DNA of 64,000 nucleotides from assembly GCA_036002345.1 (NCBI GenBank), contig DASYTM010000010.1, positions 18,978 to 82,977 on the forward strand. The letters run 5' to 3'. Under the pieces are notes generated by a model. The model was not told the origin of the DNA. It made no database searches and worked only from the letters and a program-made list of their open reading frames with translations. The translations under genes and the position numbers were made by a program. Positions 14,162 through 54,346 of the stretch are shown here, in pieces (position 1 is the first letter of the stretch; every line of letters begins with the position of its first letter). This stretch comes from Candidatus Methylomirabilota bacterium. Its GTDB lineage: Bacteria; Methylomirabilota; Methylomirabilia; Rokubacteriales; CSP1-6.

Positions 14162-15594
14162 CCGGCGCCCGCGCGCTCGCCGCCTGGACCGGCCCCGCGC
14201 TCGCCGCCGCCGTCGTCGCGGGCATCACGGCCGGGACCGCCGTCGCGCCGGTGCTCCTCCTCAGCGCGGCGCTGGCCCCGCTCGTCGCGCTGCTCCAGCC
14301 CGCGCGCGCGCCCGCGGCGCCGCACGCGGTGACGCTCGCGCTCACCGCCGTCGTCGCCGCGCTGCTCCTGTGGGCGCACGTCGCGCTGCTCGCCGACACC
14401 GCGACGCTGCTCGGCGCGGGTCGCGCGCAGGCCGTCGTGCTCGCGCTCGCGCTGGCCCTGCTCGTCGGGCTGGTGCCCGGCGCCGGGCGCTGGTGCGCGG
14501 TGGTGGGCGGGCTGGGGGGCGTCGCGCTGCTGCTCGTCCTCGTGGACGCCGCGGCGACCGTCGGCGTCGCGCCGTGGACGGCGTGGCGGGAGGCCGCCGC
14601 GCGGCCCGCGGTCGTGTTCGGCGCGCGCAGCCCGTGGGTCCGCGACGGCGAGCGCCTCGTCCGCGGCGCCACGCTCGCCTTCGACGAGGGCCACCGCGTC
14701 GTCGCGGTCACGCGGGGCACGCTTCGCGTCGTCGAGGCCGACGGCGCGCGGCGGGTGGTCCGCGACTGGCGGCTGGCCGCGGGCGACGCCGTCAGCCTGC
14801 GGCCGGCCGACACGCTCGTCGCCGAGGCGGGCAGCCGGCTGCGCTTCGAGCCGGGCAAGCGCGTCCCCGGCGCCGCCGCGTCGGGCTCGGCCTGGGCCGA
14901 CGCCGCCACGCGCGCGCCGCTCGCTCAGGTCGTGGGCCTGGCCGTCACGCTCCTGCTCGGCGCCGTGGCCCTCGTGCCCGCGGGGGGACGGCGCGCCGCC
15001 GCCGCGCCGGCGATCGTCCTCGTGTTCGCGCTCGGCACGGCCGCGTGGGGCGTCTACGCGGCCGTGGTCGCGCCGGAGTCGGGGCTGGCCGGCTCACCCG
15101 CGGAGGCGCTGCTGGCGCCGGCGCGCAGCGCGACGCCGGGCGGTGAGCTCTCGCCCGGCGCGCTGACCATCGTGGTCGTCGTGGGGCTGCTCGCGCTGTT
15201 CGTCGCGGCGGCGGGCGCGCTCCGCGATCGCGTCGCGGAGACCGGCGGCCGCCGGTGGCCCGAGGCCTGGATGACGGCGGTCATTGCCGCCGGCCTCGCC
15301 GGCCTGGTCGACGTCGTCGATCCGTGGACGCCGCTCGCGGCGGGGCTCGGCGTGGCGGCGGCGGCGCTGGCGGCGCCGCGGCTGGCGGGCGCCGACGGGG
15401 CGTGGATCGGCCCGTGGCCCGCCGCGGCGGTCGGCGGGCTGGTGGGCGTGGCCGTCTTCGCCGCCGTGGCGGCCCTTGGGGCCGGGCTGCCCGCCCCGCT
15501 GGCAGTCCTCCGTGACCTCCCGGCGCTGGCCGCGGCGCCGGCGGCGTGGGTGATCGTGAAAGTCTTACGACGGGAGGCGGGCGAGACGCGCTGA
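14158..15594 (+). CDS. Hypothetical polytopic membrane protein (Ala/Leu-rich, 8 or more predicted TM segments with a central soluble beta-rich insert)
   Basis: Long hydrophobic segments. No recognised family. Codon periodicity is consistent with the neighbouring genes. Confidence 0.45.
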
Positions 15595-18415: not shown

Positions 18416-19852
18416 ATGCGGCGGACCAAGATCGTCTGCACCATCGGGCCCGCGTCCTCCACCGTCGCCGAGCTCGACCGCCTCGCCGCCGCGGGCATGG
18501 ACGTGGCGCGGCTCAACTTCTCGCACGGCACGCACGCCGAGCACGCCGAGGTCATCCGCCGCATCCGCGAGGCCGAAGCGCGCTGGCAGCGGCCCGTCGC
18601 GATCCTGCAAGACCTGCAGGGACCCAAGATCCGGCTCGGCACCTTCGGCGACGGCGGGGGCGGCCGCGTGGACCTCCAGCCCGGGCGCCCCTTCGCGCTC
18701 TGCCGCACGCCCTGCGTGGGGAGCGAGGCGCGCGTGTTCGTCTCGCCGCCCGAGTACCTCGGCCGGGTCAAGGCCGGCGACGAGATCTGGATGGACGACG
18801 GCATGATCCAGCTGCGCGTCGAGGCCACCACGCCGGACGAGGTCCGCTGCGTCGTGGTGGCGGGCGGCCGCATCAGCGACCACAAGGGCATCTCGCTGCC
18901 GCACGTGGATCTCCCCGCGTCGTGTCTCACCGAGAAGGACGTCGCGGATCTCAAGTTCGGCATCGAGCAGGGCGTGGACTTCGTGGCCGTCTCGTTCGTG
19001 CGCACGGCCGCCGACATCCGCGAGGTCCGGCGCTTCCTGGCCGCCCAGGGCGCCGAGATCCCGCTCGTGGCCAAGCTGGAGCGCCACGAGGTGCTCGCCA
19101 ACCTGCGCGACGTCATCGGCGCGGTGGACGCGGTGATGGTGGCGCGCGGCGACCTCGGCGTGGACGTGCCGCTCGAGGACGTGCCGCACATCCAGAAGGA
19201 GATCATCCGCCAGGCGCACGCCGCCAAGGTTCCCGTGATCGTGGCCACGCAGATGCTGGAGTCGATGGTCACCCACACGCGGCCCACGCGCGCGGAGGTC
19301 GCCGACGTGACGGCGGCGATCTTCGACGGCGCCGACGCCATCATGCTCTCCGCGGAGACGGCCTCCGGCCGCTACCCCGCCGAGGCCGTGGAGACGATGG
19401 CGCGGATCGCGGAGCGCGCCGAGCAGGCCACCCTCTGGATGGAGCCGCCGCGCCGGCGCCGCGACAGCCACGCGCCCGTCGGCTTTCCCGAGGCCATCTC
19501 CGACGCCGCCGCCAGCGCGGCCCGCGCCCTGGACGCGCGCGCCATCGTGGCCTTCACCCAGTCGGGCTTCTCCGCGCGGCTCATCTCGCAGGAGCGCCCG
19601 GCCACGCCGATCATCGCGTTCACGCCGTTCGCCAGCGTCCAGCGCCGGCTCGCGCTGACCTGGGGCGTGACGTCGCGGATCATCCGCAAGGTCGAGACCA
19701 CCGACGAGATGGTCGAGGAGATCGAGGCCACGCTGCTCGGCGACGGCACCGTCCGCGCCGGCGACGTGCTCGTGATCATCTCCGGGTCGCCCATGTGGGT
19801 GACCGGCACCACCAACCTCCTCAAGCTCCACCGCGTCGGGGAACGCCGCTGA
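18416..19852 (+). CDS. pyk: Pyruvate kinase
   Basis: MRRTKIVCTIGPAS...ARLNFSHG...MVARGDLGVDVP...ATQMLESM matches the canonical PK motifs. Confidence 0.95.
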   Translation: MRRTKIVCTIGPASSTVAELDRLAAAGMDVARLNFSHGTHAEHAEVIRRIREAEARWQRPVAILQDLQGPKIRLGTFGDGGGGRVDLQPGRPFALCRTPCVGSEARVFVSPPEYLGRVKAGDEIWMDDGMIQLRVEATTPDEVRCVVVAGGRISDHKGISLPHVDLPASCLTEKDVADLKFGIEQGVDFVAVSFVRTAADIREVRRFLAAQGAEIPLVAKLERHEVLANLRDVIGAVDAVMVARGDLGVDVPLEDVPHIQKEIIRQAHAAKVPVIVATQMLESMVTHTRPTRAEVADVTAAIFDGADAIMLSAETASGRYPAEAVETMARIAERAEQATLWMEPPRRRRDSHAPVGFPEAISDAAASAARALDARAIVAFTQSGFSARLISQERPATPIIAFTPFASVQRRLALTWGVTSRIIRKVETTDEMVEEIEATLLGDGTVRAGDVLVIISGSPMWVTGTTNLLKLHRVGERR

Positions 19853-22800
19853 GCCGCGGCCGCCGACTCCTCGTCCTCGGGGCGGCCGTCGCCGGCGTCG
19901 CGGGGGTGTGGATCGGGGGCGGCGTGCTGCTCCTGCGCGAGGTGGACGCGCGCGGCGCCGCCATGGCCGACCTCGCCGCCGAGCGCGCCGGCGCGGCCGT
20001 CGCCGAGGAGCGCCGCGCCCTCCTCCGCGAGGCGGCGCTGCTCGCGCAGGAGCCGGCCGTCGTCGAGGGCGCCGCCCGGCGCGACTGGGCGACGCTGGCC
20101 CGCGGGGCCGCGCGGCTGCGCTCGCTCACCATGGAAGGGCACGCCGACCTCGTCGTCGTCCTCGACGCCGCCGGCGCGCCGCTGCTCCAGGTCCCGGCCT
20201 CGCCACGCGTCGAGCTGCCCGCGCTGCCGCCGCCGGCGCGGCCCACGGTGAGCACCGTCACCCTCGGCGGGCGCGCGTACCTGCTCGGCGTGGCGCCGAT
20301 CGGCGGCGAGCCCGGAGGCGGCCTCGTCGTGGTGGGCCGGCGCGCCGAGCGGCCCGCCGCGGCCGGCGGCGACCGGCTGCGCCACTCGAACGAGGTGTCG
20401 CGCCAGGGCCTCGTGCGCGCGCTGGTGGCCAGCGGCGCGCTCGCGGCACTCGCGGCCGCCGCCATCGCGCTCTTCGCCACGCGACGGCGCGGCCCGGCGA
20501 CGCCGCGGGCCGCCGCCACGCCGGCGGCCACCGGCGGGCGCGAGCTCAAGGCCCTCTACGAGGCCGCCGTCCTCGTCGGCAGCGGCACCGAGCTCGAGGC
20601 GACGGTCACCCAGACCCTCGCCGTGATCTGCGCGGTGGCGCGGATCGACCTGGGCATGGTGTACCGCGTCGATCGCGCGAGCGGACGGCTGGCGCTCGTC
20701 GCGCACTACGCGATCCCTCCGCGCTACATGGACTTCCTCCAGACGCGGTCGATCGAGGGCACGCGCATCGGGCAGACCGCGCGCACCGGCGAGCACACGC
20801 TCGTGGACCTCGATCCCGCGCGGCTCCGCGATCCCGTCCTGAAGGAGGCCGTGGCCCGCGAGGGCTACCGCACGCAGCTCTCGCTGCCGATCCCGGTGCA
20901 GGGGACGACGTGGGGCGTGATGACGCTCGTCTCCAAGGAGCGCCGCCGCTTCGACGCCGACGAGCTCACGCTGCTCCACGCCGTCGGCCACCAGCTCGGG
21001 CTCGCCGTGGCCAACGCCGCGCTCTTCGCGGAGACGGGCGCCAAGTCCCGGCGGCTCGAGACGCTGACCCGCGTCGCCCAGGGCCTGGCCGCCACGCTGC
21101 CCGACGAGGAGCTGTTCGCCCGCGTGATCGGTGCCGCGCGCGAGACGTTCGACGCGGCCGCCGCGCGCCTCTGGCTCCTCGAGGAGGACGGCGAGACGCT
21201 CGTCATGCGCGCCGGCGCTGGCGTGGAGCTCGCGAGCGAGCTGCGCCGGGTGCGCGTCGGCGAGGGCCTCACCGGCCGGGTCGTGGCCCAGCGCGCGCCG
21301 CTGACCGTCGCCGACCTCGCCACGGACCCGCGCCCGCTCGCCAGCGACCGCCTGCTCGCGCAGGGCATGGCCGCCTACGCCGGCGTGCCGCTGGTGGTGG
21401 GCGACCGGGTCCTCGGCGGCCTGGCCATCGGCCTGGCCCGGCCGCACGAGTTCAGCGCCGAGGAGCTGGAGGTCCTCACCTCACTTGCCAACCTCGCCGC
21501 GGTGGCCATCGAGAACGCGCGCCTGCTGTCCGGCGAGCGCACGCGCCGCCAGTACCTCGGCGCCCTCCTCGACATCAACACCAAGATCGGCGCCATGGCG
21601 CCGACGGAGACCCTGCTCACCTCCATCGCCGAGGAGGCCGCGCGGCTGCTCGGCGTGGACAACGCCGGCTTCCGCCTCCTCGAGGGCGACGACCTCGTGC
21701 TGGCGGGGCTGGCAGGCACCGCGCGCGAGACGATGCTCCGCCCGCGCATCAAGATCGGTGAGAGCGTGAGCGGCAAGGTGCTGGCGGCGGGGCGGACGCT
21801 GCGGCTGGACATCGAGGAGGTGCCGGACATCGTGCCCGAGCACCTCGTCGCCGACCGGCGTCACGGTTACACGAAATTCCTCGGGGTGCCGCTGCGCATC
21901 GGCGAGCGGGTCATCGGCGTGCTCACGTTCCGCGCGCGCTGGCCCTTCAGCGCGCGCGACGAGGAGCTGGCGGAGGCGTTCGCCGGCCAGGCCGCCATCG
22001 CCATCGAGCACGCGCGCCTCGTGCGCGAGGCGTCGGAGCAGGCCGGGCGCCTGCGCGCGCTCACGGACCTCTCGCGCCTCTTCACGGGCACGCTCGAGCC
22101 CGACGTCGTCAACGAGCGGATCGTGGACAGCGTGGGGCGGCTCTTCGCGTCGGTGTCGGCGACGCTCTTCCGCATGGACCAGGCCACCGGGGAGCTCGTG
22201 CCCATGGCGACCTCGGCGGCCGGGACGCGCCTGGCGGCGCCCGTGCCCGTTCTGCCGCGCGGGGTCGGCATTTCCGGGCTGGCCGCGCTGTCGCGCCGGG
22301 TGGTGGTGTCGTCGGACGTGTCCGCGGACCCCAACATCGAGCGGAGCGACGCCCTGCGCGACTGGGCCGCCGCCGTCGGCGACTACTCCGCGATCGCGGT
22401 GCCGCTGGTGGTGGGCGACGTGCTGGTCGGCGTGCTCACCGTGCGCGGCGAGCGCGGCCGCGTCTTCGACCCGGCGGACTCGCAGCTGGCGCAGACGTTC
22501 GGCGACCAGGCGGCCCTCGCCCTCGCCAACGCGCGGCTGTACACGGAAGCGACGCAGCGGCGCGCGGAGGCCGAGGAGCTGGCGCGCCTGGCGCGCACGC
22601 TCACCGAGTCCCTCGACGTCTCGGAGGTCGTGGAGCGCACGGCGGAGAGCGTGCTGCCGATGTTCCGCGCGCAGTCCTCGGTGGTGCGGCTCCTCCAGCC
22701 CGACGGCTCGCTGGTGGCCCTCGCCCTGGGCGGGCGCGCGCGCGACCAGTTCGAGATGGGCCACGTGCTGCCGCCCGGCGTGGGCGTGCTGGGGCGCGCC

Positions 22801-25800
22801 GTGGTGAACGGCCGCGTCGCGTCGTCGTCCGACCTGTTCACCGACCGGAGCACGCGCGTCTCCGACGATCTGCGCGAGCGCGTGCACGCCAGCGGCGACG
22901 GCGCGGTGCTGGCGGTGCCCATGCGCGCCAAGGGCGTGATCATCGGCGCGCTGGGGATCGCCGACCGGCCCGGCCGGATCTTCACGGACGGCGAGGCGGC
23001 CCTGCTGCAGGCCTTCGCCGACCAGGCCACGCTGGCGCTGGAGAACGCCCGGCTGTTCTCGCTCGAGCGCGCGCGCCGCCAGCAGATCGCCGCCCTGGCC
23101 GACATCGAGCGCGAGCTGGCCGCCGTCCTCGACGCCGAGCGCCTGCCCGACCTGATCGTCGAGCGCGCCACCGGGCTCTTCAAGGCCAACGGCGCGCTGT
23201 GGATCATGGACGAGGCGGGAGGCCTGATGCCCCGGGCGTGGCGGGGGCAGGACCTCACGGGCGAGCGCCTGGGGCGGGGCGAGGGCTTCGCGGGCCTGGC
23301 CGTGAGCGAGCGGCGCGGCTTCATCACCAACGACTACGCGCGCTCGCCGCACGCGGTGGGGCGCTACGTCGACGCCGGCGTGCGCAGCATCATCGTGCAG
23401 CCCGTGATCCTGCGCGACCGGCCGCTCGGCGTGCTCACCATGAGCCGCGTGAGCACGGAGGCGCCGCCCTTCGGGGTCGAGGACCTCGCCCTGCTGCAGA
23501 GCTTCGCCGCCCACGCCGCCACCGCCCTCGACAACGCGCGCCTGTACGAGGAGGCGCGCCGCTACGCCGACCGGCTGCGCGCGCTGGAGGAGGTCAACCG
23601 CCTCGTCTCGTCCTCGCTCAATCCCGACGAGGTCCTCGCCAACCTTGCCCGCGCGATCTCGCAGTTCTTCGACGCGCCGTACGTGAGCGTGTGGAGCCTC
23701 GACGAGAGCACGGGCCGGCTGCGGCGGGCCCTCACCCACGGCGACTCCAGCCTGGCCTCCGACCTCCACCAGGAGCTCGCCCCCGGCGAGGGCGCGGTGG
23801 GCTGGGTCGTCCAGCACCGCGAGCCCATCCTGTGGACGGACGTGACCACGGACCCGCGCATCATCGACGGCGCGGAGCTGACGCGCGCCGGGTTCAAGTC
23901 GTTCACCGCCTATCCCGTCGCCATCGGCGAGCGCATGCTCGGCGCCTTCGCCGTGCACCGCGCCTCGCCGTGGCTGCTCACGCCGGAGACGGCGTCGCTC
24001 ATGGGCTCGCTGGCCGCGCAGGCGGCGGTGGCGCTGGAGAACGCGCGCCTCTACTCGGAGACGACTCGGCGCCTGACGGAGACCCGCGCCCTCCTCGAGG
24101 TGGCCGAGGTGCTGAACTCCACCCTCGACGCGCGCCAGCTCCTCAAGCGCGTCGCCATCAAGCTCGCGCAGATCCTCCAGGTGGACCGCTGCACGATCGA
24201 GCGCTGGGACGGCGACCGCGTCATCCCGCTCATGTCGCAGTTCGCCGACGGCCGGCGTCGCGAGCGGATGTGGGAGGCCTTCCTCACCGTCACCAACCGT
24301 CCCCTGCGTGACGTGCCGACCAACGCGCGCGCCATCGAGACGCGCCGGCCCGTGATCGTGGACGACGCCACCGATCCCGCCCTCACGCCGGCCGACTGGG
24401 TGGCGGCCTTCGGGCTCAAGTCGTACATGGTGGTGCCGATGCTCCGGCAGGAGGAGGTCATCGGCGTGGTCACGCTCGACTACTGCGAGCGGGTGGGGCG
24501 CTTCGCGCCGTGGCAGGCCGATCTCGCCACGGCCGTGGTCGGCCAGGTCGCCCTCGCGCTGGAGAACACGCGCCTGTACGGGGAGGCGCAGGAGCGGCTG
24601 CGCGAGACCACCACGCTGCTCGCGGTCGGCCGCGTGCTCACCGAGCGCGCCAGCGGCCCGGAGGCCATGCGCCGGGTGGCGGCGGAGGTCGCGCGCGCGT
24701 TCGGCGCCGACATGGCCGGCGCGTGCCTGCTCGACGAGCGCAAGGAGCGGCTCGTGGCCGTGGGCGGCTACCACGTCCCCAAGGATCTGCTGCAGGCCTT
24801 CGCGGAGCGCCCCATCGTGCTCGACCGCTTCCCGTGGCTGCAGGACGCCTGGCGCGCCGGCCGCGCCGCCACCAGCCCGGATCCGCACGCCGATCCGCGC
24901 TTCGACCAGGCGTGGCAGGCCGCGATGCCGCCGCACTCGCTCCTCTTCGTGCCCACGCTCGCCCACGGCGAGCCCGTCGGCGGCCTCTTCCTCGTGTGGT
25001 GGCACACCGGCCGCCTGTTCGATCCCGCCGAGATCCGCCTCGTGGAGGGCGTGGCCGCGCAGGTCGGCCTCGCCATGGAGAACGCCGAGCTGGCGCGCCA
25101 GACCCAGGTGAAGCTCGCCGAGACGCAGACGCTGCTCTCCGTGAGCCGCGCGCTCTCCACGACCCTCGACCTCCAGCAGCTCGTGCGGCACTTTCTGCGC
25201 GCCGTCGCCACCACCCTCGGCGCCGACTCCGTGGGCTCGTGGCTCGTGCAGGAGGACGGGGAGTGGATGGAGCCGCTCGTCGGCTACCACCTGCCGCGGG
25301 AGCGGCTCGCCGACGCCCGCGAGCTCCGGATCTCGCTGCTCAAGCACCCGTTCTACGCGGAGGCCGCGCGCACCAGGCGTCCGGTGTTCACGAGCGACGC
25401 CATGAACGACTCGCGCCTGCCCCCGGCCGTGCGCGAGCGCGGCTCGCACCGGACGCAGCTCTTCGTGCCCGTCGTGGTCAAGGACCGGATGATCGCCGCC
25501 TTCGCCGCCATCTGGTGGGAGACGGCGCGCGAGTTCTCCGAGGACGAGCTGGCCCTCATGGAGGCCATCGCCAACCAGGCGGGCGTCGCGCTCGAGAACG
25601 GCCGCCTCTTCGAGGAGAATCGCCAGCGCCTCGAGGAGCTGTCCGTGCTGCACGACCTCTCGCGCGCCGTCACCGGCCAGCTCGAGCGCGGGGCGATCGT
25701 GGAGGCGGTGCGGCGCCACATCGCGCGCGTGCTGGACGCGCGCAACCTCGTCATCATCGTGCGCGACGAGGAGCGGGACGAGCTGGAGGTGACGCTGCGG

Positions 25801-27285
25801 GTCACCGACGGCGCCGACGACCCGAGCGAGCCGCGGCGCTACCCGCTGGAAGACATCGGCCTCATGTCCGTCGTCCTCGCCACCGGCCGGCCCCTGCGGA
25901 CCGACGACTACGCGGCGGAGTGCGAGCGGCGGGGCGTGCAGCCCGTGGCGGGCTCCGCCGATCGCAAGACCTGGCTCGGCGTGCCGATGACGGCGGGCGA
26001 GCAGGTCCTCGGCGTCATCGTCCTGCGCGGGGCCGCGCGCCCCTACGGCGCCGCCGACGAGCAGCTCCTCCTCAACATCGCCCACCTGGCCGCCCTCGCC
26101 CTGCGCAGCGTGCGCCTGTACGAGGAGCGCACGCGCGCCTACGGCGAGCTGGCGGCCGCCCAGGACCAGCTCGTGCGCACCGAGAAGCTGCGCGCGCTGG
26201 GCGAGATGGCCTCCGGCGTGGCGCACGACTTCAACAACCTGCTCGCCTCCGTGCTGGGCCGCGCCCAGCTCCTGATGCGCCGCGTGCAGGACCCGCAGCA
26301 GCGGGAGTGGCTGCGTGTCATCGAGCGCTCCGCCCTGGACGGCGCGGCCACGGTGCGGCGGCTGCAGGAGTTCACGCGCATCCGTCGCGACCAGCCCATG
26401 GTGCCGCTGGACGTGGCGCAGATCGTGCGCGACGCGCTCGACATCACCCAGTCGCGCTGGCGCGAGGAGCCAGTGAGCCGCGGCATCGTCGTCGACGTCC
26501 AGGCCGATCTCGCCGCCGTGCCGCCCATCCTCGGCGACGCCGCCGAGCTCCGCGAGGCGCTCACCAACCTGATCCTCAACGCCGTGGACGCGATGCCCGC
26601 GGGCGGGACGCTGCGCCTGGTCACCGCCGCCAACGACGACCACGTGGAGGTCGCCGTGTCCGACACGGGCGTCGGCATCCCGCCCGCCGTGCGCGAGAAG
26701 ATCTTCGACCCCTTCTTCACCACCAAGGGCCCGCAGGGCACCGGGCTCGGGCTGTCGATGACCTACGGCATCGTGTCGCGGCACGGCGGCTTCGTGAGCG
26801 TGGAGAGCGAAGAGGGGCGCGGCTCCACGTTCCGGCTGTCCTTCCCGTCGGCGGCTGCCGTGGAGCCGGCGACCCCGGCCGCCAAGCCCGCCGCCTCGGC
26901 GCCCACGCGCACGCTGCGCTGTCTCGTGGTCGACGACGAGGCCGACGTGCGCAGCGTGCTCGGGGACGTCATCGAGTCCGCCGGCCACCAGGCCACGCTG
27001 ATCGCGGGCGGCGCGGACGCGATCGAGCGATTCCGCGCCGAGCCCTTCGACGTCGTGCTGACCGACCTCGCCATGCCCCGCGTCTCCGGCTGGCAGGTGG
27101 CGCGCGCCGTCAAGCAGATCGCGCCGCGCGTGCCCGTGTTCCTCGTGACGGGCTTCGGCGTGGAGCTGTCGCCCGAGGAGCGCCGCACCCACGGCGTGGA
27201 CCTCGTGCTCGTCAAGCCGCTGCAGATCCAGGAGATCCTCGACGCCCTGGCCGAGGTGGCGCGCAACGCCGCGCCGCCCGCCTGA
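19849..27285 (+). CDS. Giant multi-GAF hybrid sensor histidine kinase (2 TM + periplasmic sensor, then about 11 tandem GAF domains, HisKA, HATPase_c, C-terminal REC). The start codon is uncertain (CTG at 19849, GTG at 19906, or ATG at 19963).
   Basis: The N-terminus has two hydrophobic helices flanking a ~180-aa region. There are 10-11 recurrences of the GAF terminal-helix motif A(L/I)(E/A)NARL(Y/F/L). HisKA H-box EKLRALGEMASGVAHDFNNLLASV. HATPase GTGLGLSM. REC LRCLVVDDEADVRSVL...VVLTDLAMPRVSG. Confidence 0.85.
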   Translation: MSRGRRLLVLGAAVAGVAGVWIGGGVLLLREVDARGAAMADLAAERAGAAVAEERRALLREAALLAQEPAVVEGAARRDWATLARGAARLRSLTMEGHADLVVVLDAAGAPLLQVPASPRVELPALPPPARPTVSTVTLGGRAYLLGVAPIGGEPGGGLVVVGRRAERPAAAGGDRLRHSNEVSRQGLVRALVASGALAALAAAAIALFATRRRGPATPRAAATPAATGGRELKALYEAAVLVGSGTELEATVTQTLAVICAVARIDLGMVYRVDRASGRLALVAHYAIPPRYMDFLQTRSIEGTRIGQTARTGEHTLVDLDPARLRDPVLKEAVAREGYRTQLSLPIPVQGTTWGVMTLVSKERRRFDADELTLLHAVGHQLGLAVANAALFAETGAKSRRLETLTRVAQGLAATLPDEELFARVIGAARETFDAAAARLWLLEEDGETLVMRAGAGVELASELRRVRVGEGLTGRVVAQRAPLTVADLATDPRPLASDRLLAQGMAAYAGVPLVVGDRVLGGLAIGLARPHEFSAEELEVLTSLANLAAVAIENARLLSGERTRRQYLGALLDINTKIGAMAPTETLLTSIAEEAARLLGVDNAGFRLLEGDDLVLAGLAGTARETMLRPRIKIGESVSGKVLAAGRTLRLDIEEVPDIVPEHLVADRRHGYTKFLGVPLRIGERVIGVLTFRARWPFSARDEELAEAFAGQAAIAIEHARLVREASEQAGRLRALTDLSRLFTGTLEPDVVNERIVDSVGRLFASVSATLFRMDQATGELVPMATSAAGTRLAAPVPVLPRGVGISGLAALSRRVVVSSDVSADPNIERSDALRDWAAAVGDYSAIAVPLVVGDVLVGVLTVRGERGRVFDPADSQLAQTFGDQAALALANARLYTEATQRRAEAEELARLARTLTESLDVSEVVERTAESVLPMFRAQSSVVRLLQPDGSLVALALGGRARDQFEMGHVLPPGVGVLGRAVVNGRVASSSDLFTDRSTRVSDDLRERVHASGDGAVLAVPMRAKGVIIGALGIADRPGRIFTDGEAALLQAFADQATLALENARLFSLERARRQQIAALADIERELAAVLDAERLPDLIVERATGLFKANGALWIMDEAGGLMPRAWRGQDLTGERLGRGEGFAGLAVSERRGFITNDYARSPHAVGRYVDAGVRSIIVQPVILRDRPLGVLTMSRVSTEAPPFGVEDLALLQSFAAHAATALDNARLYEEARRYADRLRALEEVNRLVSSSLNPDEVLANLARAISQFFDAPYVSVWSLDESTGRLRRALTHGDSSLASDLHQELAPGEGAVGWVVQHREPILWTDVTTDPRIIDGAELTRAGFKSFTAYPVAIGERMLGAFAVHRASPWLLTPETASLMGSLAAQAAVALENARLYSETTRRLTETRALLEVAEVLNSTLDARQLLKRVAIKLAQILQVDRCTIERWDGDRVIPLMSQFADGRRRERMWEAFLTVTNRPLRDVPTNARAIETRRPVIVDDATDPALTPADWVAAFGLKSYMVVPMLRQEEVIGVVTLDYCERVGRFAPWQADLATAVVGQVALALENTRLYGEAQERLRETTTLLAVGRVLTERASGPEAMRRVAAEVARAFGADMAGACLLDERKERLVAVGGYHVPKDLLQAFAERPIVLDRFPWLQDAWRAGRAATSPDPHADPRFDQAWQAAMPPHSLLFVPTLAHGEPVGGLFLVWWHTGRLFDPAEIRLVEGVAAQVGLAMENAELARQTQVKLAETQTLLSVSRALSTTLDLQQLVRHFLRAVATTLGADSVGSWLVQEDGEWMEPLVGYHLPRERLADARELRISLLKHPFYAEAARTRRPVFTSDAMNDSRLPPAVRERGSHRTQLFVPVVVKDRMIAAFAAIWWETAREFSEDELALMEAIANQAGVALENGRLFEENRQRLEELSVLHDLSRAVTGQLERGAIVEAVRRHIARVLDARNLVIIVRDEERDELEVTLRVTDGADDPSEPRRYPLEDIGLMSVVLATGRPLRTDDYAAECERRGVQPVAGSADRKTWLGVPMTAGEQVLGVIVLRGAARPYGAADEQLLLNIAHLAALALRSVRLYEERTRAYGELAAAQDQLVRTEKLRALGEMASGVAHDFNNLLASVLGRAQLLMRRVQDPQQREWLRVIERSALDGAATVRRLQEFTRIRRDQPMVPLDVAQIVRDALDITQSRWREEPVSRGIVVDVQADLAAVPPILGDAAELREALTNLILNAVDAMPAGGTLRLVTAANDDHVEVAVSDTGVGIPPAVREKIFDPFFTTKGPQGTGLGLSMTYGIVSRHGGFVSVESEEGRGSTFRLSFPSAAAVEPATPAAKPAASAPTRTLRCLVVDDEADVRSVLGDVIESAGHQATLIAGGADAIERFRAEPFDVVLTDLAMPRVSGWQVARAVKQIAPRVPVFLVTGFGVELSPEERRTHGVDLVLVKPLQIQEILDALAEVARNAAPPA

Positions 27286-27300
27286 CCGGAGGAACAACCG

Positions 27301-28092
27301 ATGGCCTTCCAGCACATCATCGTCGAGCGCGCCGCGCAGGTGGCGACCGTGACTCTGAACCGTCCCGACGCCTACAACGCGCTGAACCTCGGGCTCGGGC
27401 GCGAGCTCTTCGACGCGTCCATCCAGCTCGACGAGGATCCCGGCGTGCGCTGCGTCGTCGTCACGGGCGCCGGCAAGTCGTTCTGCGCGGGCGGCGACGT
27501 GCGCGACTTCGCCGACAACCTGCCGCGGGTGAGCGCGCTCATCAAGGAGCTGACGACGTACCTGCACGGCGCGATCTCGCGCTTCTGCCGGAGCGACAAG
27601 CCCGTCATCATGGCCGTCAACGGCATCGCGGCGGGCGGCGGGATGAGCCTGGCCCTGTCCGGCGATCTCGTGGTGGCCACGGAGTCCGCGAAGTTCACCA
27701 TGGCCTATTCCAAGATCGCCGCCACGCCCGACGGCTCGTCGTCGTATTTCCTGCCACGCCTGGTCGGCCTGCGGCGCGCGATGGAGCTCTACTTCACCAA
27801 CCGCGTGCTCACGGCGCGCGAGGCGCTGGAGTGGGGGCTCGTGACGCGCGTGGTGCCGGACGCCGAGTTCAAGCCCGCCGTCGAGACGCTGGCGCGCGAG
27901 CTGGCCCGGGGCCCGTCCAAGGCCTTCGGCGGCGCCAAGCGCCTCTTCCACCAGTCCACCTGGGAGAGCCTCGAGACGCAGATGGAGCTGGAGACGCAGG
28001 CCATCGCCAACTCCGGCCGCACCGAGGACTTCAAAGCCGGCGTCACTGCCTTCGCCAACAAGAAGCAGCCGCCGCCGTTCCAGGGGCGATAA
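27301..28092 (+). CDS. Enoyl-CoA hydratase/isomerase (crotonase) family protein
   Basis: VATVTLNRPDAYNAL...VVVTGAGKSFCAGGDV...VNGIAAGGGMSLAL. Confidence 0.85.
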   Translation: MAFQHIIVERAAQVATVTLNRPDAYNALNLGLGRELFDASIQLDEDPGVRCVVVTGAGKSFCAGGDVRDFADNLPRVSALIKELTTYLHGAISRFCRSDKPVIMAVNGIAAGGGMSLALSGDLVVATESAKFTMAYSKIAATPDGSSSYFLPRLVGLRRAMELYFTNRVLTAREALEWGLVTRVVPDAEFKPAVETLARELARGPSKAFGGAKRLFHQSTWESLETQMELETQAIANSGRTEDFKAGVTAFANKKQPPPFQGR

Positions 28093-28847
28093 TGGGGACC
28101 ATGAAAGCACGCCTGTTCACCCGCCCCGGCTGATCCTCCTGCGCCAAGACGAAGGAGCTGCTCTCGTCTTGGGGGGTCGAGTTCGACCCGATCGACGTGC
28201 AGGCGGACCCGGCGGCGCGCGCGGAGATGGAGCGGCTCGGCATTCCCCGTCCGCCCGGCGTCGCCTTCCGTGAGCGCGTCGTCCACGGCTGGAACCCCGA
28301 TGCCTACGCCGAGCTGCTCGGCGTGGACTTCCGCATGGGCGTGCGCTTCACGCCCGCCGAGCTGGCCTCGCGGCTCGAGCGCGTGCTCGAGTCCGCCCAG
28401 CACCTCACGGCGCGCTTCGACGCCCGCCAGATGGAGCACGTGCCGCCCGAGCGCAAGCGCACGCTGCGCGACCTCACGTTCCACGTCTTCCGCGTGGGCC
28501 TGTCCTTCGCCGACGCCGTGGACCGCGCGGCACTGCCCGAGGAATGGTTCGAGGAGCGCGCGCCGGCGGAGCTGGTGACGGGCGGCGACGTCGCGCGCTA
28601 CGGCGCGCTCGTGCGCGCGCGCCTCACGGGCTGGTTCCAGGGCGCCGGCGCCGACGAGTTCAAGCGGACCGTGGAGACCTACTACGGCCCGCAGGCCGCC
28701 GACGAGCTGCTCGAGCGGACGACGTGGCACGCGGGCCAGCACCTGCGCCAGCTCTACGTGCTCGCCGAGCGGCTCGGGGTGACGCCGCCCGCGCCGCTCC
28801 CCAAGGACGCACTCGAGGGATTGCCGCTGCCCGACGCGCTCTGGTAG
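28092..28847 (+). CDS. Glutaredoxin-like domain fused to DinB/YfiT-like domain; candidate selenoprotein with in-frame TGA (Sec) at 28131-28133 giving G-U-S-S-C in place of the Grx CPYC motif
   Basis: The single frame MGTMKARLFTRPG-[TGA]-SSCAKTKELLSSWGVEFDPIDVQADPAARAEMERLGIPRPPGVAF closely follows the glutaredoxin N-terminal signature (vY(t/s)kpgCpyCkkAKelLeekGvefeeIDV). The DinB-like C-terminal half lies in the same frame (HLTARFDARQMEH...HAGQHLRQL). TAATG coupling to the upstream gene. Confidence 0.7.
28144..28172 (+). promoter_or_regulatory. Candidate bacterial SECIS hairpin 11 nt downstream of the in-frame UGA of the Grx-DinB gene
   Basis: CCAAGACGA-AGGAGCUGCUC-UCGUCUUGG forms a perfect 9-bp stem. 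Confidence 0.45.
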
Positions 28848-29855: not shown

Positions 29856-31253
29856 CTACGCCTCTTTCGCCGCGCCACCGACGGCCAACGGATGCAACAC
29901 GTCGATCGCCCAGCCCACGTCGAGGCGCTCGCCGGACCAGCCGGGTCGGGAGGTCTGCGCGTTGATGTGAAGGCCGCGCACGTCGTTGTCTGCTCTGAGC
30001 GCCGCCGCGGGATCGGGAGCCACGACCGGCGGAGGCGGCACCTCCGGCAGTAACTCCCCATCCGGCCGCCTGAAGCGGAGCGCTCCGTCCTCCTGCTGTT
30101 CGATCCGGTAACCCTCTTCGTGGACGCTGCGGTGGTGCCGCCGACAGAGCATGACGAGGTTCGACAGCGTCGTCGGGCCGCCATGGGCCCAGTGCTGGAT
30201 GTGATGGCCCTGCCCGAACGGCAGCCCGCAGCCCGGGAAACGGCACCCGCGGTCGCGATGCTCCAGCGCCCGGCGGAGCGCGGGCGGAATCGTCCGGGTC
30301 CGGGCGCCAACCTCCGTGACGTGGCCGTCCGCGTCGTGGCGCATCACCACCCGGCTCGCGTCGCACGCCAGGCGCCGGGATGTTTCCGCGGAACCGTGGC
30401 CGCCGTCTTCGAGGACGGACTGGCCCGGGGCGTCCGGGTCCGCCAGGACCGGCGCATCGACGTGAACCACGACCTGGTAGCGCTCGCCCGCCGTCCCCGG
30501 CTCGAGGCCATGATGGAGTGCGGTTTCCGCCAGCAAGCCGAGGGCGTCGGCCTGCCGCTGCCCCCAGGTCGGCGCGTCATCGCCGACGATCCGGCCCGTC
30601 TCCGGATCGAGCGTTTCCGCGGAAACGTTTCTGGCGCGTCCAGACGGATACAGCACCTCGCAGGCCGCGGACAGTGCCTTCTTCACCACGGCGCCGACCT
30701 CGCGGTCCAGCCGCCCGCGGATGACCACCATCCCGTCCGCGTCTTCATAGAGGTGGAGGGCGCGGCTCCGGTGGCGCTGAAGACTGTCGCGCGCTTCCGC
30801 CTTTCGGTCGACGCCGCGCCAGCCCCGGACGACCCGCTCGACGTGCTCGGCGGTGCCCGCCCGGCCGACCTTGAGCAGTCGCCCTTCGGTTTCGGGCGTC
30901 GCCACCCGTGTCAACGCTCGGACCTTCGAGTACGACAGCTCGCCGCGGGCCAAGGCATCCGCCAGCACCGGCAGCCGGCCCAGGGCTCGCGCGACGCGCA
31001 CGCGCTCCCGAGCGGCACCTGGGTCGAGACCGACACGCCAGGTCAGCCAGTGGGCGCACGACCGGAAGCCGGTGCCCCAACCCTCGCGCGCGTCGAACTC
31101 GCGGATGAGATCGAGCAGCCTGGCCGTCGCTGCATCGAGGTGCGCGGACAGCTCGCCGATCTGGTCGCCGAGCCGCTCGAGCTCGGCGGCATCCGGCGTG
31201 ACGGTGGGTGGGAGCGGCGGCGCGACTCGGACATCATCGAATGCGGTGTTCAT
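29856..31253 (-). CDS. DUF222 / HNH endonuclease signature motif protein (13E12-repeat family)
   Basis: The N-terminal DUF222 region (ELERLGDQIGELSAHLDAATARLLDLIREFDAREGW...CAHWLTWRVGL) and the C-terminal HNH motif (CRFPGCGLPFGQGHHIQHWAHGGPTTLSNLVMLCRRHHRSVHE) are typical of this mobile-element-associated family. Confidence 0.8.
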   Translation of the reverse strand: MNTAFDDVRVAPPLPPTVTPDAAELERLGDQIGELSAHLDAATARLLDLIREFDAREGWGTGFRSCAHWLTWRVGLDPGAARERVRVARALGRLPVLADALARGELSYSKVRALTRVATPETEGRLLKVGRAGTAEHVERVVRGWRGVDRKAEARDSLQRHRSRALHLYEDADGMVVIRGRLDREVGAVVKKALSAACEVLYPSGRARNVSAETLDPETGRIVGDDAPTWGQRQADALGLLAETALHHGLEPGTAGERYQVVVHVDAPVLADPDAPGQSVLEDGGHGSAETSRRLACDASRVVMRHDADGHVTEVGARTRTIPPALRRALEHRDRGCRFPGCGLPFGQGHHIQHWAHGGPTTLSNLVMLCRRHHRSVHEEGYRIEQQEDGALRFRRPDGELLPEVPPPPVVAPDPAAALRADNDVRGLHINAQTSRPGWSGERLDVGWAIDVLHPLAVGGAAKEA

Positions 31254-38988: not shown

Positions 38989-39633
38989 ATGCCCATTCTC
39001 CAGCCCCGCGACGAGGAAGCCGTTCGCAAGGAGTTCCAGCGCCTCGCCGGACCCGTGAAGCTGGTCGTCTTTTCTCAGGAGCTGGTGGCGGGCGACCTCT
39101 GCCGTCAGAACGAGCAGCTGTTGAAGGAGGTCGCGGCGCTCTCGGACCAGATCACCGTCGAGGTGCTCAACCCTGCCATCGACAAGGACCGCGCCGCCGC
39201 CTACGGCATCGACCAGGTCCCGGCCACCGTCGTGGAGGGCGCGCGCGACTACGGCATCCGCTTCCTCGGCGTGCCCGCCGGCTACGAGTTCAGCAACCTC
39301 ATCGACTCGATCATCGCCGTGTCGAGCGGGGAGGCCATGCTGACCGCGGACACCAAGGCCTCGCTGGCCGCGCTGGCCGGCGACGTCGAGATCAAGGTCT
39401 TCTCCACCCCCACCTGACCGCACTGTCCCCGGGCCGTGCGCCTGGCACAGCACATGGCGATCGCGTCGGACCGCGTGACGGCCACGGCCATCGACGCCTC
39501 GGAGTTTCCCGACCTCGCGCGCGCCTACCAGGTGAGCGGCGTGCCGAAGATCGTCATCAACGACAAAGTCGAGCTGCTCGGCGCGTACCCGGAGCCGCAG
39601 TTCCTCGAGGCGGTGCTGCGCGCCGTCGCATGA
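38989..39633 (+). CDS. AhpF-N-terminal/PDO-like glutaredoxin-like protein disulfide oxidoreductase (two thioredoxin-fold units); candidate selenoprotein with in-frame TGA (Sec) at 39415-39417 giving T-U-P-H-C (DsbA-type CPHC motif with Sec)
   Basis: The frame is continuous: ...DVEIKVFSTPT-[TGA]-PHCPRAVRLAQHMAIASDRVTATAIDASEFPDLARAYQVSGVPKIVINDKVELLGAYPE... It matches the second (CxxC-bearing) unit of AhpF-NTD/PDO proteins (CPYCP...ID..EFPELA.KY.V.SVP.IVIN). Confidence 0.65.
39423..39450 (+). promoter_or_regulatory. Candidate bacterial SECIS hairpin 6 nt downstream of the in-frame UGA of the PDO-like gene
   Basis: CUGUCC-CCGGGC-CGUGC-GCCUGG-CACAG forms an extended, near-perfect stem (one G•U) with a 5-nt loop. 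Confidence 0.4.
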
Positions 39634-43257: not shown

Positions 43258-43305
43258 CTGCCGCGCGAAATAGCAGCGCGCGCCGCGCTGCAAACGATTC
43301 CGGCA

Positions 43306-43330
43306 GCGCGCGACTGCTTCGATCGCGCGC
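43306..43330 (+). promoter_or_regulatory. Inverted repeat GCGCGCGA-N9-TCGCGCGC ~60 bp upstream of the sigma-54-like promoter (candidate enhancer-binding-protein site)
   Basis: Perfect 8-bp arms with a 9-nt spacer, read directly from the sequence. Confidence 0.3.
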
Positions 43331-43382
43331 AATGAGCGCGTAACTCCGCGTCTCCCCAACGCGCGCGCCGACACGCCGCGCG

Positions 43383-43398
43383 TGGCACGTCCGCTGCA
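43383..43398 (+). promoter_or_regulatory. Sigma-54 (-24/-12) type promoter upstream of the nitrate assimilation operon
   Basis: TGGCACgtccgcTGCA against the consensus TGGCAC-N5-TTGCA. It lies ~56 nt upstream of the nrtA GTG start. Confidence 0.5.
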
Positions 43399-43453
43399 CT
43401 TCTTTCCCCGCGGCATTTCTGTGTTGCGCACGTTTCGCGCAGGGGGAGGACCA

Positions 43454-44701
43454 GTGCGACTGACTCGTCGAGACTTCGTGAAGACCACCGCGGCCGCCGC
43501 GCTGCTGGCCGGCGTGCCGGCCGGCTGGCGCGGGAGCGCGTACGCCTCGGACGCGCCCGAGCATCCGAAGATGCGCATCGGGATCATCGCCCTCACCGAC
43601 TGCTCGTCGATCGTCATGGCCCACGAGCTCGGGCTCTTCAAGAAGCACGGGATCGAGTCCACGATCTCGAAGGAAGCGTCGTGGGCGGTGATCCGCGACC
43701 GCCTCACCCTCGGCGAGAACCAGGCCACGCACCTGCTGCTCGGCATTCCGTACGCGGCGACCATGGGGCTTCAGGGCTCGCCCGTGAAGCCGATGATCAT
43801 CCCGATGTACCTCAACCGGAACGGGCAAGCCATCACGCTCACCAAGGCGCTGCTCGACAAGGGTGTGAAGACGCCGCAGCAGCTCAAGCCGCACGCCATG
43901 GAGGCGAAGGGCAAGGGCAGCCCGATGACGTTCGCCATGACGTACCCCCCGGGCACGCACGCGATGTGGACGCGCTACTGGCTGGCGGCGGGCGGGATCA
44001 ATCCCGATCGTGACGTCACGCTGATAACGATTCCGCCGGCGCAGATGGTGGCCAACATGAAGGTCGGCAAGATGGACGGCTACTGCGTGGGCGAGCCGTG
44101 GGGCGCGCGCGCCATCGCGGATGGCATCGGGTTCACCGCCATCACCACGCAGCAGATCTGGAAGGACCACCCCGAGAAGGTGCTCGGCTTCACGGAAGAG
44201 TTCGCCGCGAAGAACCCGAAGACGGTGAAGGCGGTGATGCGCGCCATCGTCGAGGCGAGCCAGTGGAACGACAAGCTCGAGAACCGCCCGAGGATGGCGG
44301 AGGTGGTCGGCCAGCCGCAGTACGTCAACGCGTCCAGGGAGACGATCCTGGGCCGCATGCTGGGCGATTACGAGTACGGCGACGGGCGCAAGGAGAAGGA
44401 CAAGTTCTACATGACCTTCTTCGACCGCCAGACCAACTTCCCGATGAAGTCGCACGGCACGTGGTGGCTCACGCAGTTCCGGCGCTGGGGCATGGTCAAG
44501 GAGCCGCCGGACTACAAGGGCCTCGTCGACCGCGTCCACCGGCCCGACATCTTCCGCGAGGTCGCCAAGGAGATGGGCATCGAGACGCCGCGCGGCGACG
44601 CGGAGAAGACGACGTTCTTCGACGGCGGCGTGTTCGATCCCGGCACGGATCCCGAAAAGTACGTGAAGGGCTTCGCCGTCCACACCATGGGGGCGGCGTG
44701 A
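43454..44701 (+). CDS. nrtA: Nitrate ABC transporter substrate-binding protein NrtA, Tat signal peptide
   Basis: [13 protein letters not shown]. Tat motif TRRDFVKTTAAAALLAG. NrtA/CmpA-like core (KMRIGIIALTDCSSIVMAHELGLFKKHG). An upstream ATG at 43382 is also in frame. Confidence 0.85.
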   Translation: MRLTRRDFVKTTAAAALLAGVPAGWRGSAYASDAPEHPKMRIGIIALTDCSSIVMAHELGLFKKHGIESTISKEASWAVIRDRLTLGENQATHLLLGIPYAATMGLQGSPVKPMIIPMYLNRNGQAITLTKALLDKGVKTPQQLKPHAMEAKGKGSPMTFAMTYPPGTHAMWTRYWLAAGGINPDRDVTLITIPPAQMVANMKVGKMDGYCVGEPWGARAIADGIGFTAITTQQIWKDHPEKVLGFTEEFAAKNPKTVKAVMRAIVEASQWNDKLENRPRMAEVVGQPQYVNASRETILGRMLGDYEYGDGRKEKDKFYMTFFDRQTNFPMKSHGTWWLTQFRRWGMVKEPPDYKGLVDRVHRPDIFREVAKEMGIETPRGDAEKTTFFDGGVFDPGTDPEKYVKGFAVHTMGAA

Positions 44702-52517: not shown

Positions 52518-52582
52518 GCCGCGCCCAGGGCCACGATTCTGTGGCAGGTCCCACCGGGGTCCTGCCGTAGAATCGTTGGAGC

Positions 52583-53815: not shown

Positions 53816-53830
53816 GAGGAGGCAGCCGCC

Positions 53831-54346
53831 ATGACGCCATCGGAGGCGAGCAAGGTCATTCGCGGCGTGCTCTGCCGCGGCCTCTCCTACGAGCAGACCG
53901 AGCAGATCTTGAAGGCGATGGTGCCGGTGAAATCCGAGGCCGGGATCGCCGTCTTCAAGGAGGGCGAGCGGCCGCAGGGCCTGATGGTGCTGCTGGAGGG
54001 CACGGTGGAGATCGTCAAGGAGGGCAGCCTGGAGATCCTCGCGACGATCGACGCGCCGACGGTGCTGGGCGAGATCAGCCTGCTCACGGAGGGCCCGCAC
54101 ACCGCCACCGTGCGCGCCAAGACGGCGTGCGAGTTCAGCCTGCTCACCTCCACGCAGTTCCACCGGCTCCTGCGCGAGGAGAGCCTGGCCGCCTACAAGG
54201 TCATCGCCATCCTGGCCGAGGTGCTCGCGCGGCGCCTGAACCGGATGGACGAGAAGTTCGTCGAGGTCTCGCGCAGGTCGGAGTCCACGCACGTCGAGGA
54301 GCTGGCCGCCTTCAAGCAGAAGCTCTTCACGGAGTGGAGCTTCTAG
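53831..54346 (+). CDS. Cyclic-nucleotide-binding (cNMP) domain protein
   Basis: GERPQGLMVLLEGTVEIV...LGEISLL...ATVRA match the CAP-family cNMP-binding fold. Confidence 0.8.
   Translation: MTPSEASKVIRGVLCRGLSYEQTEQILKAMVPVKSEAGIAVFKEGERPQGLMVLLEGTVEIVKEGSLEILATIDAPTVLGEISLLTEGPHTATVRAKTACEFSLLTSTQFHRLLREESLAAYKVIAILAEVLARRLNRMDEKFVEVSRRSESTHVEELAAFKQKLFTEWSF

Follow-up and report, generated by a model that had tools for sequence, protein, structure and literature searches.

A redoxin–DinB fusion gene of soil Rokubacteria with a conserved in-frame UGA probably read as selenocysteine

Introduction

Glutaredoxin (Grx) and Grx-like selenoproteins are known, among them Grx of Geobacter and Clostridium oremlandii and the TIGR02187 family, which is listed as a UxxC selenoprotein (PMC13188914). 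Within a thioredoxin fold they carry selenocysteine (Sec) as the first residue of a UxxC motif that sits where helix 1 begins, have abundant Cys homologues, and possess a bacterial Sec insertion sequence (bSECIS) within the coding region directly downstream of the UGA; all are single-domain or thioredoxin-fold-only proteins of ~80–210 amino acids. The DinB/YfiT superfamily (BstA/YfiT, mycothiol S-transferase, maleylpyruvate isomerase and the EgtB N-terminal domain) is built on a four-helix bundle with an H...HxxxH triad; in the literature, the metal site consists of three His, and the superfamily includes mycothiol, bacillithiol and glutathione transferases. Its known members perform thiol-dependent chemistry at the metal with a free low-molecular-weight thiol and are stand-alone or fused to other domains, none of them reported with a fused redoxin or with selenium. 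Here we describe a gene that joins these two folds in one reading frame interrupted by a single TGA. It lies at 28092–28847 on the + strand of a 64,000-nucleotide stretch (the window, meaning the whole stretch analysed; contig DASYTM010000010.1, Candidatus Methylomirabilota bacterium). We conclude from comparative sequence analysis, with a probability of roughly 0.9, that this is a real, unannotated selenoprotein gene of soil Rokubacteria in which UGA is decoded as selenocysteine; its product is very probably a two-domain selenoprotein of ~27–28 kDa.

The predicted protein shares the fold, the Sec position, the abundant Cys homologues and the downstream bSECIS with the Sec-containing Grx and Grx-like proteins, and cGrx1 (7c10) is among its closest solved redoxins. 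It differs from them in having a C-terminal DinB_2 domain, a U-S-S-C motif, and an N-terminal sequence that is NrdH/YruB-like rather than of the glutathione (GSH)-type Grx. NrdH and YruB are its best NCBIfam and Foldseek neighbours and have in common with it a 'VP...G[WF]xP'-type C-terminal half and the lack of a GSH-binding GG motif; however, it scores far below the cut-offs of these families, and its motif is USSC/CSSC, whereas that of NrdH is CVQC. With the DinB/YfiT superfamily it shares the bundle and the triad at 15–20% identity, and a transferase activity would be suggested by likeness at the level of the fold only. Canonical glutathione S-transferases (GSTs) also have a thioredoxin-like domain followed by an all-helical domain and gave weak whole-chain Foldseek matches. 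Since these matches have a template modelling (TM) score of ~0.3 and a root-mean-square deviation >12 Å, the GST helical domain appears unrelated and the likeness an analogy only.

Thioredoxin-fold UxxC selenoproteins, Grx included, and coding-region bSECIS elements are thus already known; what is new is the redoxin–DinB architecture and the near-universal Sec form in one phylum. The word 'DinB' is absent from the text of a 2026 review tabulating prokaryotic selenoprotein families (PMC13188914) and from the deep-Sep and BSepDB papers, and our literature search found no DinB-linked selenoprotein, although large automated surveys may already count the gene as 'Grx'. The gene would tie selenium to the DinB thiol-transferase superfamily, apparently for the first time in the literature found, and would add a two-domain architecture to the bacterial selenoprotein catalogue.

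An in-frame TGA conserved at one codon

The frame at 28092–28847 translates as MGTMKARLFTRPG*SSCAKTKELLSSWGVEFDPIDV…GLPLPDALW*, with the TGA at 28131–28133 as its sole internal stop.

28092–28847, + strand: complete predicted selenoprotein coding sequence, 251 codons, read through the TGA at 28131–28133 and ending with the TAG at 28845–28847
28131–28133, + strand: codon 14, UGA, predicted to encode Sec as the first residue of the U-S-S-C redox motif (28131–28142)

An earlier note on this DNA (the original prediction) had proposed exactly this, a TGA in place of the first active-site Cys with the frame continuing beyond it, and was right on both points. It had taken the site to be of the CPYC type; the first-Cys position of the TGA holds, while the family motif is C-[ST]-S-C, not CPYC. 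The ATG at 28092 overlaps the TAA of the upstream gene as TAATG (28090–28094), and the true start may instead be the ATG at 28101 (MKARLF, as in the nearest orthologues; 248 codons). Downstream of the TGA, the G+C content at third codon positions (GC3) is 0.96, in a window of 73% G+C. TGA terminates most window genes, so the genetic code is standard. Public records cut the gene to a product of 188–231 amino acids called 'DinB family' (at NCBI, 'DinB family protein') or 'hypothetical', and the called starts vary among orthologues just 3' of the TGA position (products of 201, 206, 216, 218, 228 and 231 amino acids), the pattern expected of gene callers halted by an in-frame TGA. The gene is truncated in this way in every public record seen, across at least 78 species-level Rokubacteria/Methylomirabilota genomes, and a Sec-aware family model would mend hundreds of records.

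A search of 5.8 billion proteins for relatives returned >1,000 matches, and 80 loci were taken from one-genome-per-species GTDB representatives, nearly all of them metagenome-assembled genomes (MAGs) of Methylomirabilota/Rokubacteria. The N-terminus is included in 79 of these loci. TGA occupies the identical codon in 78 of the 79, the exception being locus L071, which has TGC (Cys). The TGA lies within a conserved block, [FY][YT]RPG-*-SSCxKT[KR]ELL. On its 5' side the residues are fixed while their codons vary (four codons for Arg at −3, four for Pro at −2, three for Gly at −1), which is the signature of translation in frame before the TGA; throughout the 79 loci, the residues on either side of the TGA are conserved in one frame while synonymous codons vary. 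In none of the orthologues did a separate Grx gene end at the TGA, the case that the original prediction had named as its refutation, and the 13 codons before the TGA are too few for a Grx.

The close homologue P0101 (258 amino acids) is full length and has Cys at the site (…YYRPG-C-SSCAKVKELLSSWGVE…). An exhaustive HMMER search with P0101 against 1.84 billion cluster representatives gave 895 relatives. Among the top 150 representatives (50%-identity clusters), ~54 were full length (250–276 amino acids, 30–41% identity), and of the 27 full-length forms that were inspected, nearly all had PG-C-[ST]-S-C; a further set of relatives starts short at the same post-motif position. Comparing Cys with Sec orthologues, a check put forward with the original prediction, separates the 79 closest loci (78 TGA, one Cys) from the distant full-length forms, which are nearly all Cys. 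The distant P0129 (locus L083), 42% identical and from a metagenomic contig of lower GC, has TGA once more, in …FFQPG-TGA-SSCSKTKELL…. By these sequence comparisons, the Grx–DinB fusion is a widespread Cys family with a predicted Sec at the first Cys in the Rokubacteria clade and in some others. Since the switch from Cys to Sec is near-complete in one clade while Cys relatives abound elsewhere, the contribution of Sec could be studied here in a natural system.

Locus L071, from a MAG labelled Binatia, has its TGC at 10031. A TGA-containing protein disulfide oxidoreductase (PDO) gene is found at 14741–15370 of the same locus, and a SECIS-like hairpin is retained behind the TGC; these two features suggest a recent Sec-to-Cys reversion in a Sec-using organism.

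Sec-form genes were also seen in MAGs labelled Acidoferrum, Actinomycetota, Nitrosocosmicus (an archaeon), Verrucomicrobiia and SAR324 (loci L030, L048, L056, L064 and L077). Base composition is clearly different in the SAR324 locus (L077) only, and the other four may be mis-binned Rokubacteria contigs. In one Rokubacteria MAG the 5' end of the gene occurs a second time as a truncated copy (L074:4700–4810; …YRPG-TGA-SSCAKTREL, then divergent), ~4.5 kb upstream of the intact gene.

A covarying hairpin downstream of the TGA

Two conserved hairpins follow the TGA within the coding sequence.

28144–28172, + strand: predicted bSECIS hairpin; 9-bp stem (28144–28152 with 28164–28172), upper pairs 28153–28154 with 28161–28162, bulged C28163, apical loop GAGCUG (28155–28160)
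28174–28189, + strand: second conserved hairpin, directly 3' of the SECIS hairpin; 6-bp stem GGGUCG/CGACCC (28174–28179 with 28184–28189), loop AGUU

In the first hairpin, CCAAGACGA (28144–28152) pairs with TCGTCTTGG (28164–28172; this 3' strand is also written UCGUCUUGG). The spacer between the TGA and the stem is 10 nucleotides, so that the stem begins at the 11th nucleotide, as the original prediction had stated for a 9-bp hairpin at bSECIS spacing. RNAfold adds two pairs to give an 11-bp stem with a 6-nucleotide loop (−15.2 kcal/mol for the hairpin alone), a UGA-to-loop distance of 21 nucleotides, and G as the first loop residue. The published bSECIS model has a loop of 3–9 nucleotides, an upper stem of 4–16 bp, G in one of the first two loop positions, a UGA-to-loop distance of 16–37 nucleotides and a minimum free energy of −7.5 kcal/mol or lower (PMC13188914). 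When the 40 nucleotides 3' of the UGA were folded separately for each of 78 orthologues, 67 agreed with the model in every respect, having stems of 11–12 bp, loops of AGCU, AGCUG or GAGCUG, spacings of 21–24 nucleotides and minimum free energies of −13 to −19 kcal/mol.

The pairing is also supported by covariation. In an ungapped alignment of the 78 sequences, 91–94% of cells were paired, the figure for the first hairpin being 92%, versus 30–54% when the 3' partners were slid by 1–3 columns. Compensatory changes were found at pair 22–34 (AU to CG, nine distinct sequences) and pair 17–39 (AU to GC, two sequences), and pair 23–33 is GC in 16 and AU in 10. A bSECIS prediction, as the original prediction had advised, thus returned a hairpin that fits the published model and covaries. 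Codon choice is constrained over the same region: codon entropy at conserved residues was 0.53 for codons +4 to +19 and 0.98 for the rest of the gene (Mann–Whitney p = 0.004). Within this stretch Ala is GCC in 65/65, Thr is ACG in 78/79 and Ser is TCG in 45/45; TCT, otherwise a rare codon, persists where its pairing partner is AAG. Three of the four Cys-form genes examined (P0101, P0165 and P0141, at loci L084, L086 and L087) have no comparable hairpin. Rfam reported no family at the gathering threshold on the window, and a permissive threshold on 28080–28260 gave two chance matches only (a eukaryotic internal ribosome entry site and a microRNA).

The second hairpin is paired in 96% of cells of the orthologue alignment. 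Among distinct sequences its pair 46–57 is G-C 35 times and A-U 22 times, and A never stands opposite C (Fisher p = 3e-14); when mapped on a tree of the remaining protein sequence, this pair switched state at least 12 times, each switch coupling a Val/Ile replacement to a synonymous Asp codon (GAC/GAT). The distant L083 retains the upper stem and loop (AGUUG) of the first hairpin, while a single long stem, which also takes in the nucleotides just 3' of the UGA, makes up its lower part. We rejected the second hairpin as a universal part of the SECIS, given that its region in L083 pairs with that UGA-proximal sequence; because L083 forms one extended lower stem instead, hairpin 2 is clade-specific. 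These clean covariation data, the second hairpin included, should be useful for refining bacterial SECIS models.

Domain architecture

Profile searches were run on the translation with Cys replacing the stop.

28113–28280, + strand: Grx-like (NrdH/YruB-like) thioredoxin-fold domain, residues 8–63; Pfam PF00462, E = 7.4e-13, 48.9 bits, cut-off 22.9; invariant cis-Pro-type Pro55
28374–28754, + strand: DinB_2 four-helix-bundle domain, residues 95–221; Pfam PF12867, E = 9.7e-8, 33.0 bits, cut-off 24.8
28482–28484, 28728–28730 and 28740–28742, + strand: His triad of the DinB_2 domain (H131, H213 and H217, respectively), invariant in family alignments

Both domains are therefore found in the read-through protein, in line with the original prediction that the frame runs on into a DinB/YfiT-like domain. 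The same prediction called the N-terminal part a glutaredoxin; PF00462 is above its threshold, but the closest proteins are of the NrdH/YruB type. The NCBIfam models for YruB (TIGR02196; 40.9 bits, cut-off 88.55) and NrdH-redoxin (TIGR02194; 32.3 bits, cut-off 85.75) stayed below their cut-offs, and so did the models for UXX-star glutaredoxin-like selenoproteins (NF041212, 34.8 against 66; NF041211, 24.7 against 100; NF047338, 22.1 against 97). No NCBIfam model claims the Sec or the Cys forms of the family at cut-off, and sources label the Cys forms just 'glutaredoxin' or 'hypothetical protein'.

The Cys orthologue P0101 was modelled with AlphaFold2 from a 39-sequence alignment. The model (mean predicted local distance difference test, pLDDT, 93.5; predicted TM score, pTM, 0.88) consists of a thioredoxin fold (beta-alpha-beta-alpha-beta-beta-alpha) and then a helical bundle, and its pTM implies a fixed two-domain arrangement. 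Strand 13–17 leads to helix 22–33, with CSSC (residues 21–24) at the helix N-terminus, and the cis-Pro is invariant across alignments (P62 in P0101, P55 in the window protein). Foldseek searches of the PDB matched the N-terminal half to NrdH (1h75 and 4fiw), BC3987 (3zij) and cGrx1 (7c10), with TMt of 0.8–0.86 for 1h75, 3zij and 7c10; the N-terminal domain is NrdH-like in fold but not a member of that family. The C-terminal half matched YfiT (1rxq), YjoA (3dka), DR0053 (6iz2), 3gor, 2p1a, the mycothiol-dependent maleylpyruvate isomerase MDMPI (2nsf) and the mycothiol S-transferase of Mycobacterium tuberculosis (8f5v), with probability 1.0 and TMt of 0.7–0.85 for 1rxq, 3dka, 6iz2, 3gor and 2p1a. 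No solved PDB chain matched both halves of the P0101 model. The link to bacillithiol and mycothiol transferases drawn in the original prediction holds as similarity of fold (1rxq, 8f5v and 2nsf, 15–17% identity) and goes no further. The His triad aligns with the H...HxxxH of the solved DinB proteins 3di5, 2p1a, 2hkv and 3gor, so by sequence the domain keeps the three-His metal site of the superfamily (one His from helix 2, the HxxxH from the last helix), and metal binding is predicted.

Possible mechanism

Comparative evidence supports recoding through a covarying bSECIS, Sec or Cys at the N-terminal position of the UxxC motif, and retention of the putative DinB metal triad. In the decoding that we propose, SelB carrying Sec-tRNA(Sec) would be recruited by the mRNA hairpin that begins 10 nucleotides past the UGA, and Sec would be inserted at codon 14. 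There it would be the nucleophile, as the N-terminal residue of a U-S-S-C centre with which helix 1 of the NrdH/YruB-like fold begins. The His3-metal site may bind and polarise a thiol-reactive substrate (an electrophile or an oxidised sulfur compound), which the selenolate of the fused redoxin would attack at that site. Cys17 could then resolve the Se–S adduct to a selenenylsulfide, to be re-reduced by an external thioredoxin-reductase-type or low-molecular-weight-thiol system; the replacement of Cys by Sec in the Rokubacteria lineage may have been favoured by higher nucleophilicity. By this chemistry the protein would belong to the DinB thiol-transferase superfamily as a self-contained, redoxin-coupled representative, a proposal that we regard as tentative.

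The main functional rival is a looser coupling of the two halves in a protein that is likewise a selenoprotein. Here the active sites would be separate, the DinB domain would work as an ordinary S-transferase or isomerase that uses a low-molecular-weight thiol, and the Sec-redoxin would recycle it or serve as a redox sensor or partner-docking module. This, too, is a possibility to be held loosely. It agrees with the literature, in which the usual cofactor of DinB-family enzymes is a free thiol that binds at the metal, with the common role of Grx and NrdH domains as electron shuttles, and with neighbourhoods that vary and define no single pathway. The conservation of the fusion, the linker and the C-terminal GLPxP tail across ~30% identity argues for closer coupling, as does the fixed inter-domain arrangement indicated by the pTM, though such an arrangement is compatible with a pure recycling role.

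More speculative than the shared-site proposal, and improbable as it stands, is its extended form, in which the protein would be the first DinB/S-transferase-like selenoenzyme and cofactor-independent, the redoxin selenolate standing in at the His3-metal site for the free thiol (mycothiol, bacillithiol or glutathione). Its substrates would perhaps be alpha,beta-unsaturated or other electrophilic acyl compounds, and hairpin 2 would be a lineage-specific SECIS extension that tunes Sec insertion. The substrate class is hinted at by the conserved enoyl-CoA hydratase/isomerase neighbour and by a PrpD/MmgE fusion in one relative (see below). The substrates of most DinB superfamily members are unknown, and the fusion gives a handle on DinB chemistry.

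Selenocysteine use in the genome and phylum

A second candidate selenoprotein gene is present in the window.

38989–39633, + strand: PDO gene (AhpF-N-terminal homologue), a predicted selenoprotein with TGA at 39415–39417 in the motif …STPT-U-PHCP…

Its product scored 257.7 bits with the NCBIfam model TIGR02187 (PDO_seleno_TRX; cut-off 185). The TGA of this gene is conserved in at least 25 related loci, L071 included, at 5–10 kb downstream of the Grx–DinB gene; the fold downstream of this TGA is no better than that of shuffled sequence (z = +0.6). The phylum has been reported to have the largest predicted bacterial selenoproteome (PMC13188914), with 63 selenoprotein genes predicted in one Methylomirabilota MAG (PMC13188914, citing Deng et al. 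2026), and to contain Sec-type group 4 hydrogenases (2026 study, PMC13582414). The TIGR02187 gene with its conserved TGA, together with these phylum-level reports, indirectly supports the use of Sec by this genome. Another in-frame TGA candidate, at 52571–54346, was rejected, as it proved to be a glutamate dehydrogenase gene and a separate same-frame gene for a cyclic-nucleotide (cNMP)-binding domain.

Some observations weigh against Sec decoding of the Grx–DinB gene. Neither the 64-kb window nor 1.29 Mb of related loci yielded a selA, selB, selD or tRNA-Sec (tblastn with the E. coli SelA, SelB and SelD proteins against the window and the 80 loci; ARAGORN for tRNA-Sec on the window and 60 loci), and the presence of the machinery in this genome is inferred. 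Eleven of the 78 orthologues fail the automated bSECIS criteria, some of them owing to a simple stem-counting rule, and the loop G is mostly followed by C, whereas the consensus favours G or U. The close Cys form at L071 keeps the hairpin, so that its presence is not strictly tied to TGA.

If UGA is recoded through the SECIS and SelB, the residue inserted might still be Cys, the product then being an ordinary Cys protein. A tRNA(ReC)-type tRNA reads UGA plus SECIS as Cys and has been reported in several phyla, including in some Sec-type genomes (PMC13582414), and sequence alone cannot tell the two outcomes apart. We consider this very unlikely here. The tRNA(ReC) is enriched in UXXU-type genomes of Armatimonadota, Desulfobacterota and JAPLJL01, with Methylomirabilota not singled out (PMC13582414), and the phylum is, as noted, reported as selenoprotein-rich (PMC13188914). 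Moreover, TGA outnumbers TGC 78:1 at a codon where one base change gives Cys, and this near-total fixation argues that the UGA-encoded residue is functionally different from Cys. An ordinary stop, with the true gene a DinB-only frame from a downstream start (e.g. GTG at 28197, 216 amino acids) and the Grx-like stretch untranslated or a relic, would accord with the 188–231-amino-acid products called in all sources and with TGA as the usual stop codon of this genome but is hardly credible, for the 13 codons 5' of the TGA and the 21 from the TGA to the first start are conserved as amino acids in 79 genomes, the called starts differ between orthologues and split the thioredoxin fold in half, the Cys homologues are continuous two-domain proteins, and a relic is unlikely to persist unchanged across species-level divergence down to 42% identity.

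ARAGORN also called a 'tRNA-Pro(cgg)' of 86 nucleotides at 43518–43603. Because this call falls within a coding frame of high GC3 (43274–44701) and Rfam has no tRNA there, it is probably spurious.

Gene neighbourhood

The gene immediately upstream of the predicted selenoprotein gene encodes an acyl-CoA enzyme.

27301–28092, + strand: enoyl-CoA hydratase/isomerase gene; Pfam ECH_1, E = 1.4e-54; its TAA overlaps the ATG at 28092

The closest NCBIfam models for its product, PRK05981 and PaaG, are both under cut-off. Such a gene is found upstream on the same strand in ~70 of the 79 loci and is directly adjacent in 49 (its end <200 nucleotides from the TGA). Downstream, on the opposite strand, an unannotated gene for a multi-pass membrane protein is present in 39 loci. 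No ribonucleotide reductase genes were linked to the gene in the neighbourhood. The contexts of Sec-form and Cys-form genes differ, a point against the function proposed above: Cys-form genes were found next to luciferase-like monooxygenase, hydrolase and FGE-sulfatase genes, or next to LysR and TctC. With the enoyl-CoA hydratase neighbour conserved in the Sec forms and the Cys forms located elsewhere, no single pathway emerged, and the attempt to deduce function from gene context was abandoned.

One metagenomic relative (P0214, 721 amino acids) has an N-terminal MmgE/PrpD (2-methylcitrate dehydratase-like) domain fused to a Cys-form Grx–DinB module, which might point to the metabolism of organic acids or electrophiles. 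A stand-alone gene with an FGE-sulfatase domain, on the − strand, neighbours the Cys-form gene P0101 (L084:3863–4528). EgtB-type sulfoxide synthases combine DinB_2 and FGE-sulfatase domains, and the pairing beside P0101 may be meaningful.

Two further genes flank this region of the window. At 18922–27285 (+) lies a gene for a giant hybrid histidine kinase (~2,800–2,960 amino acids; at least 11 GAF domains, then HisKA, HATPase_c and receiver domains), which ends 16 nucleotides 5' of the enoyl-CoA hydratase start. A DUF222/HNH endonuclease gene at 29856–31253 (−), between the conserved membrane-protein gene and an aminotransferase gene, has a GC3 of 0.84, lower than that of its neighbours. It may be a mobile insertion, and related loci differ in how far away the membrane-protein gene lies.

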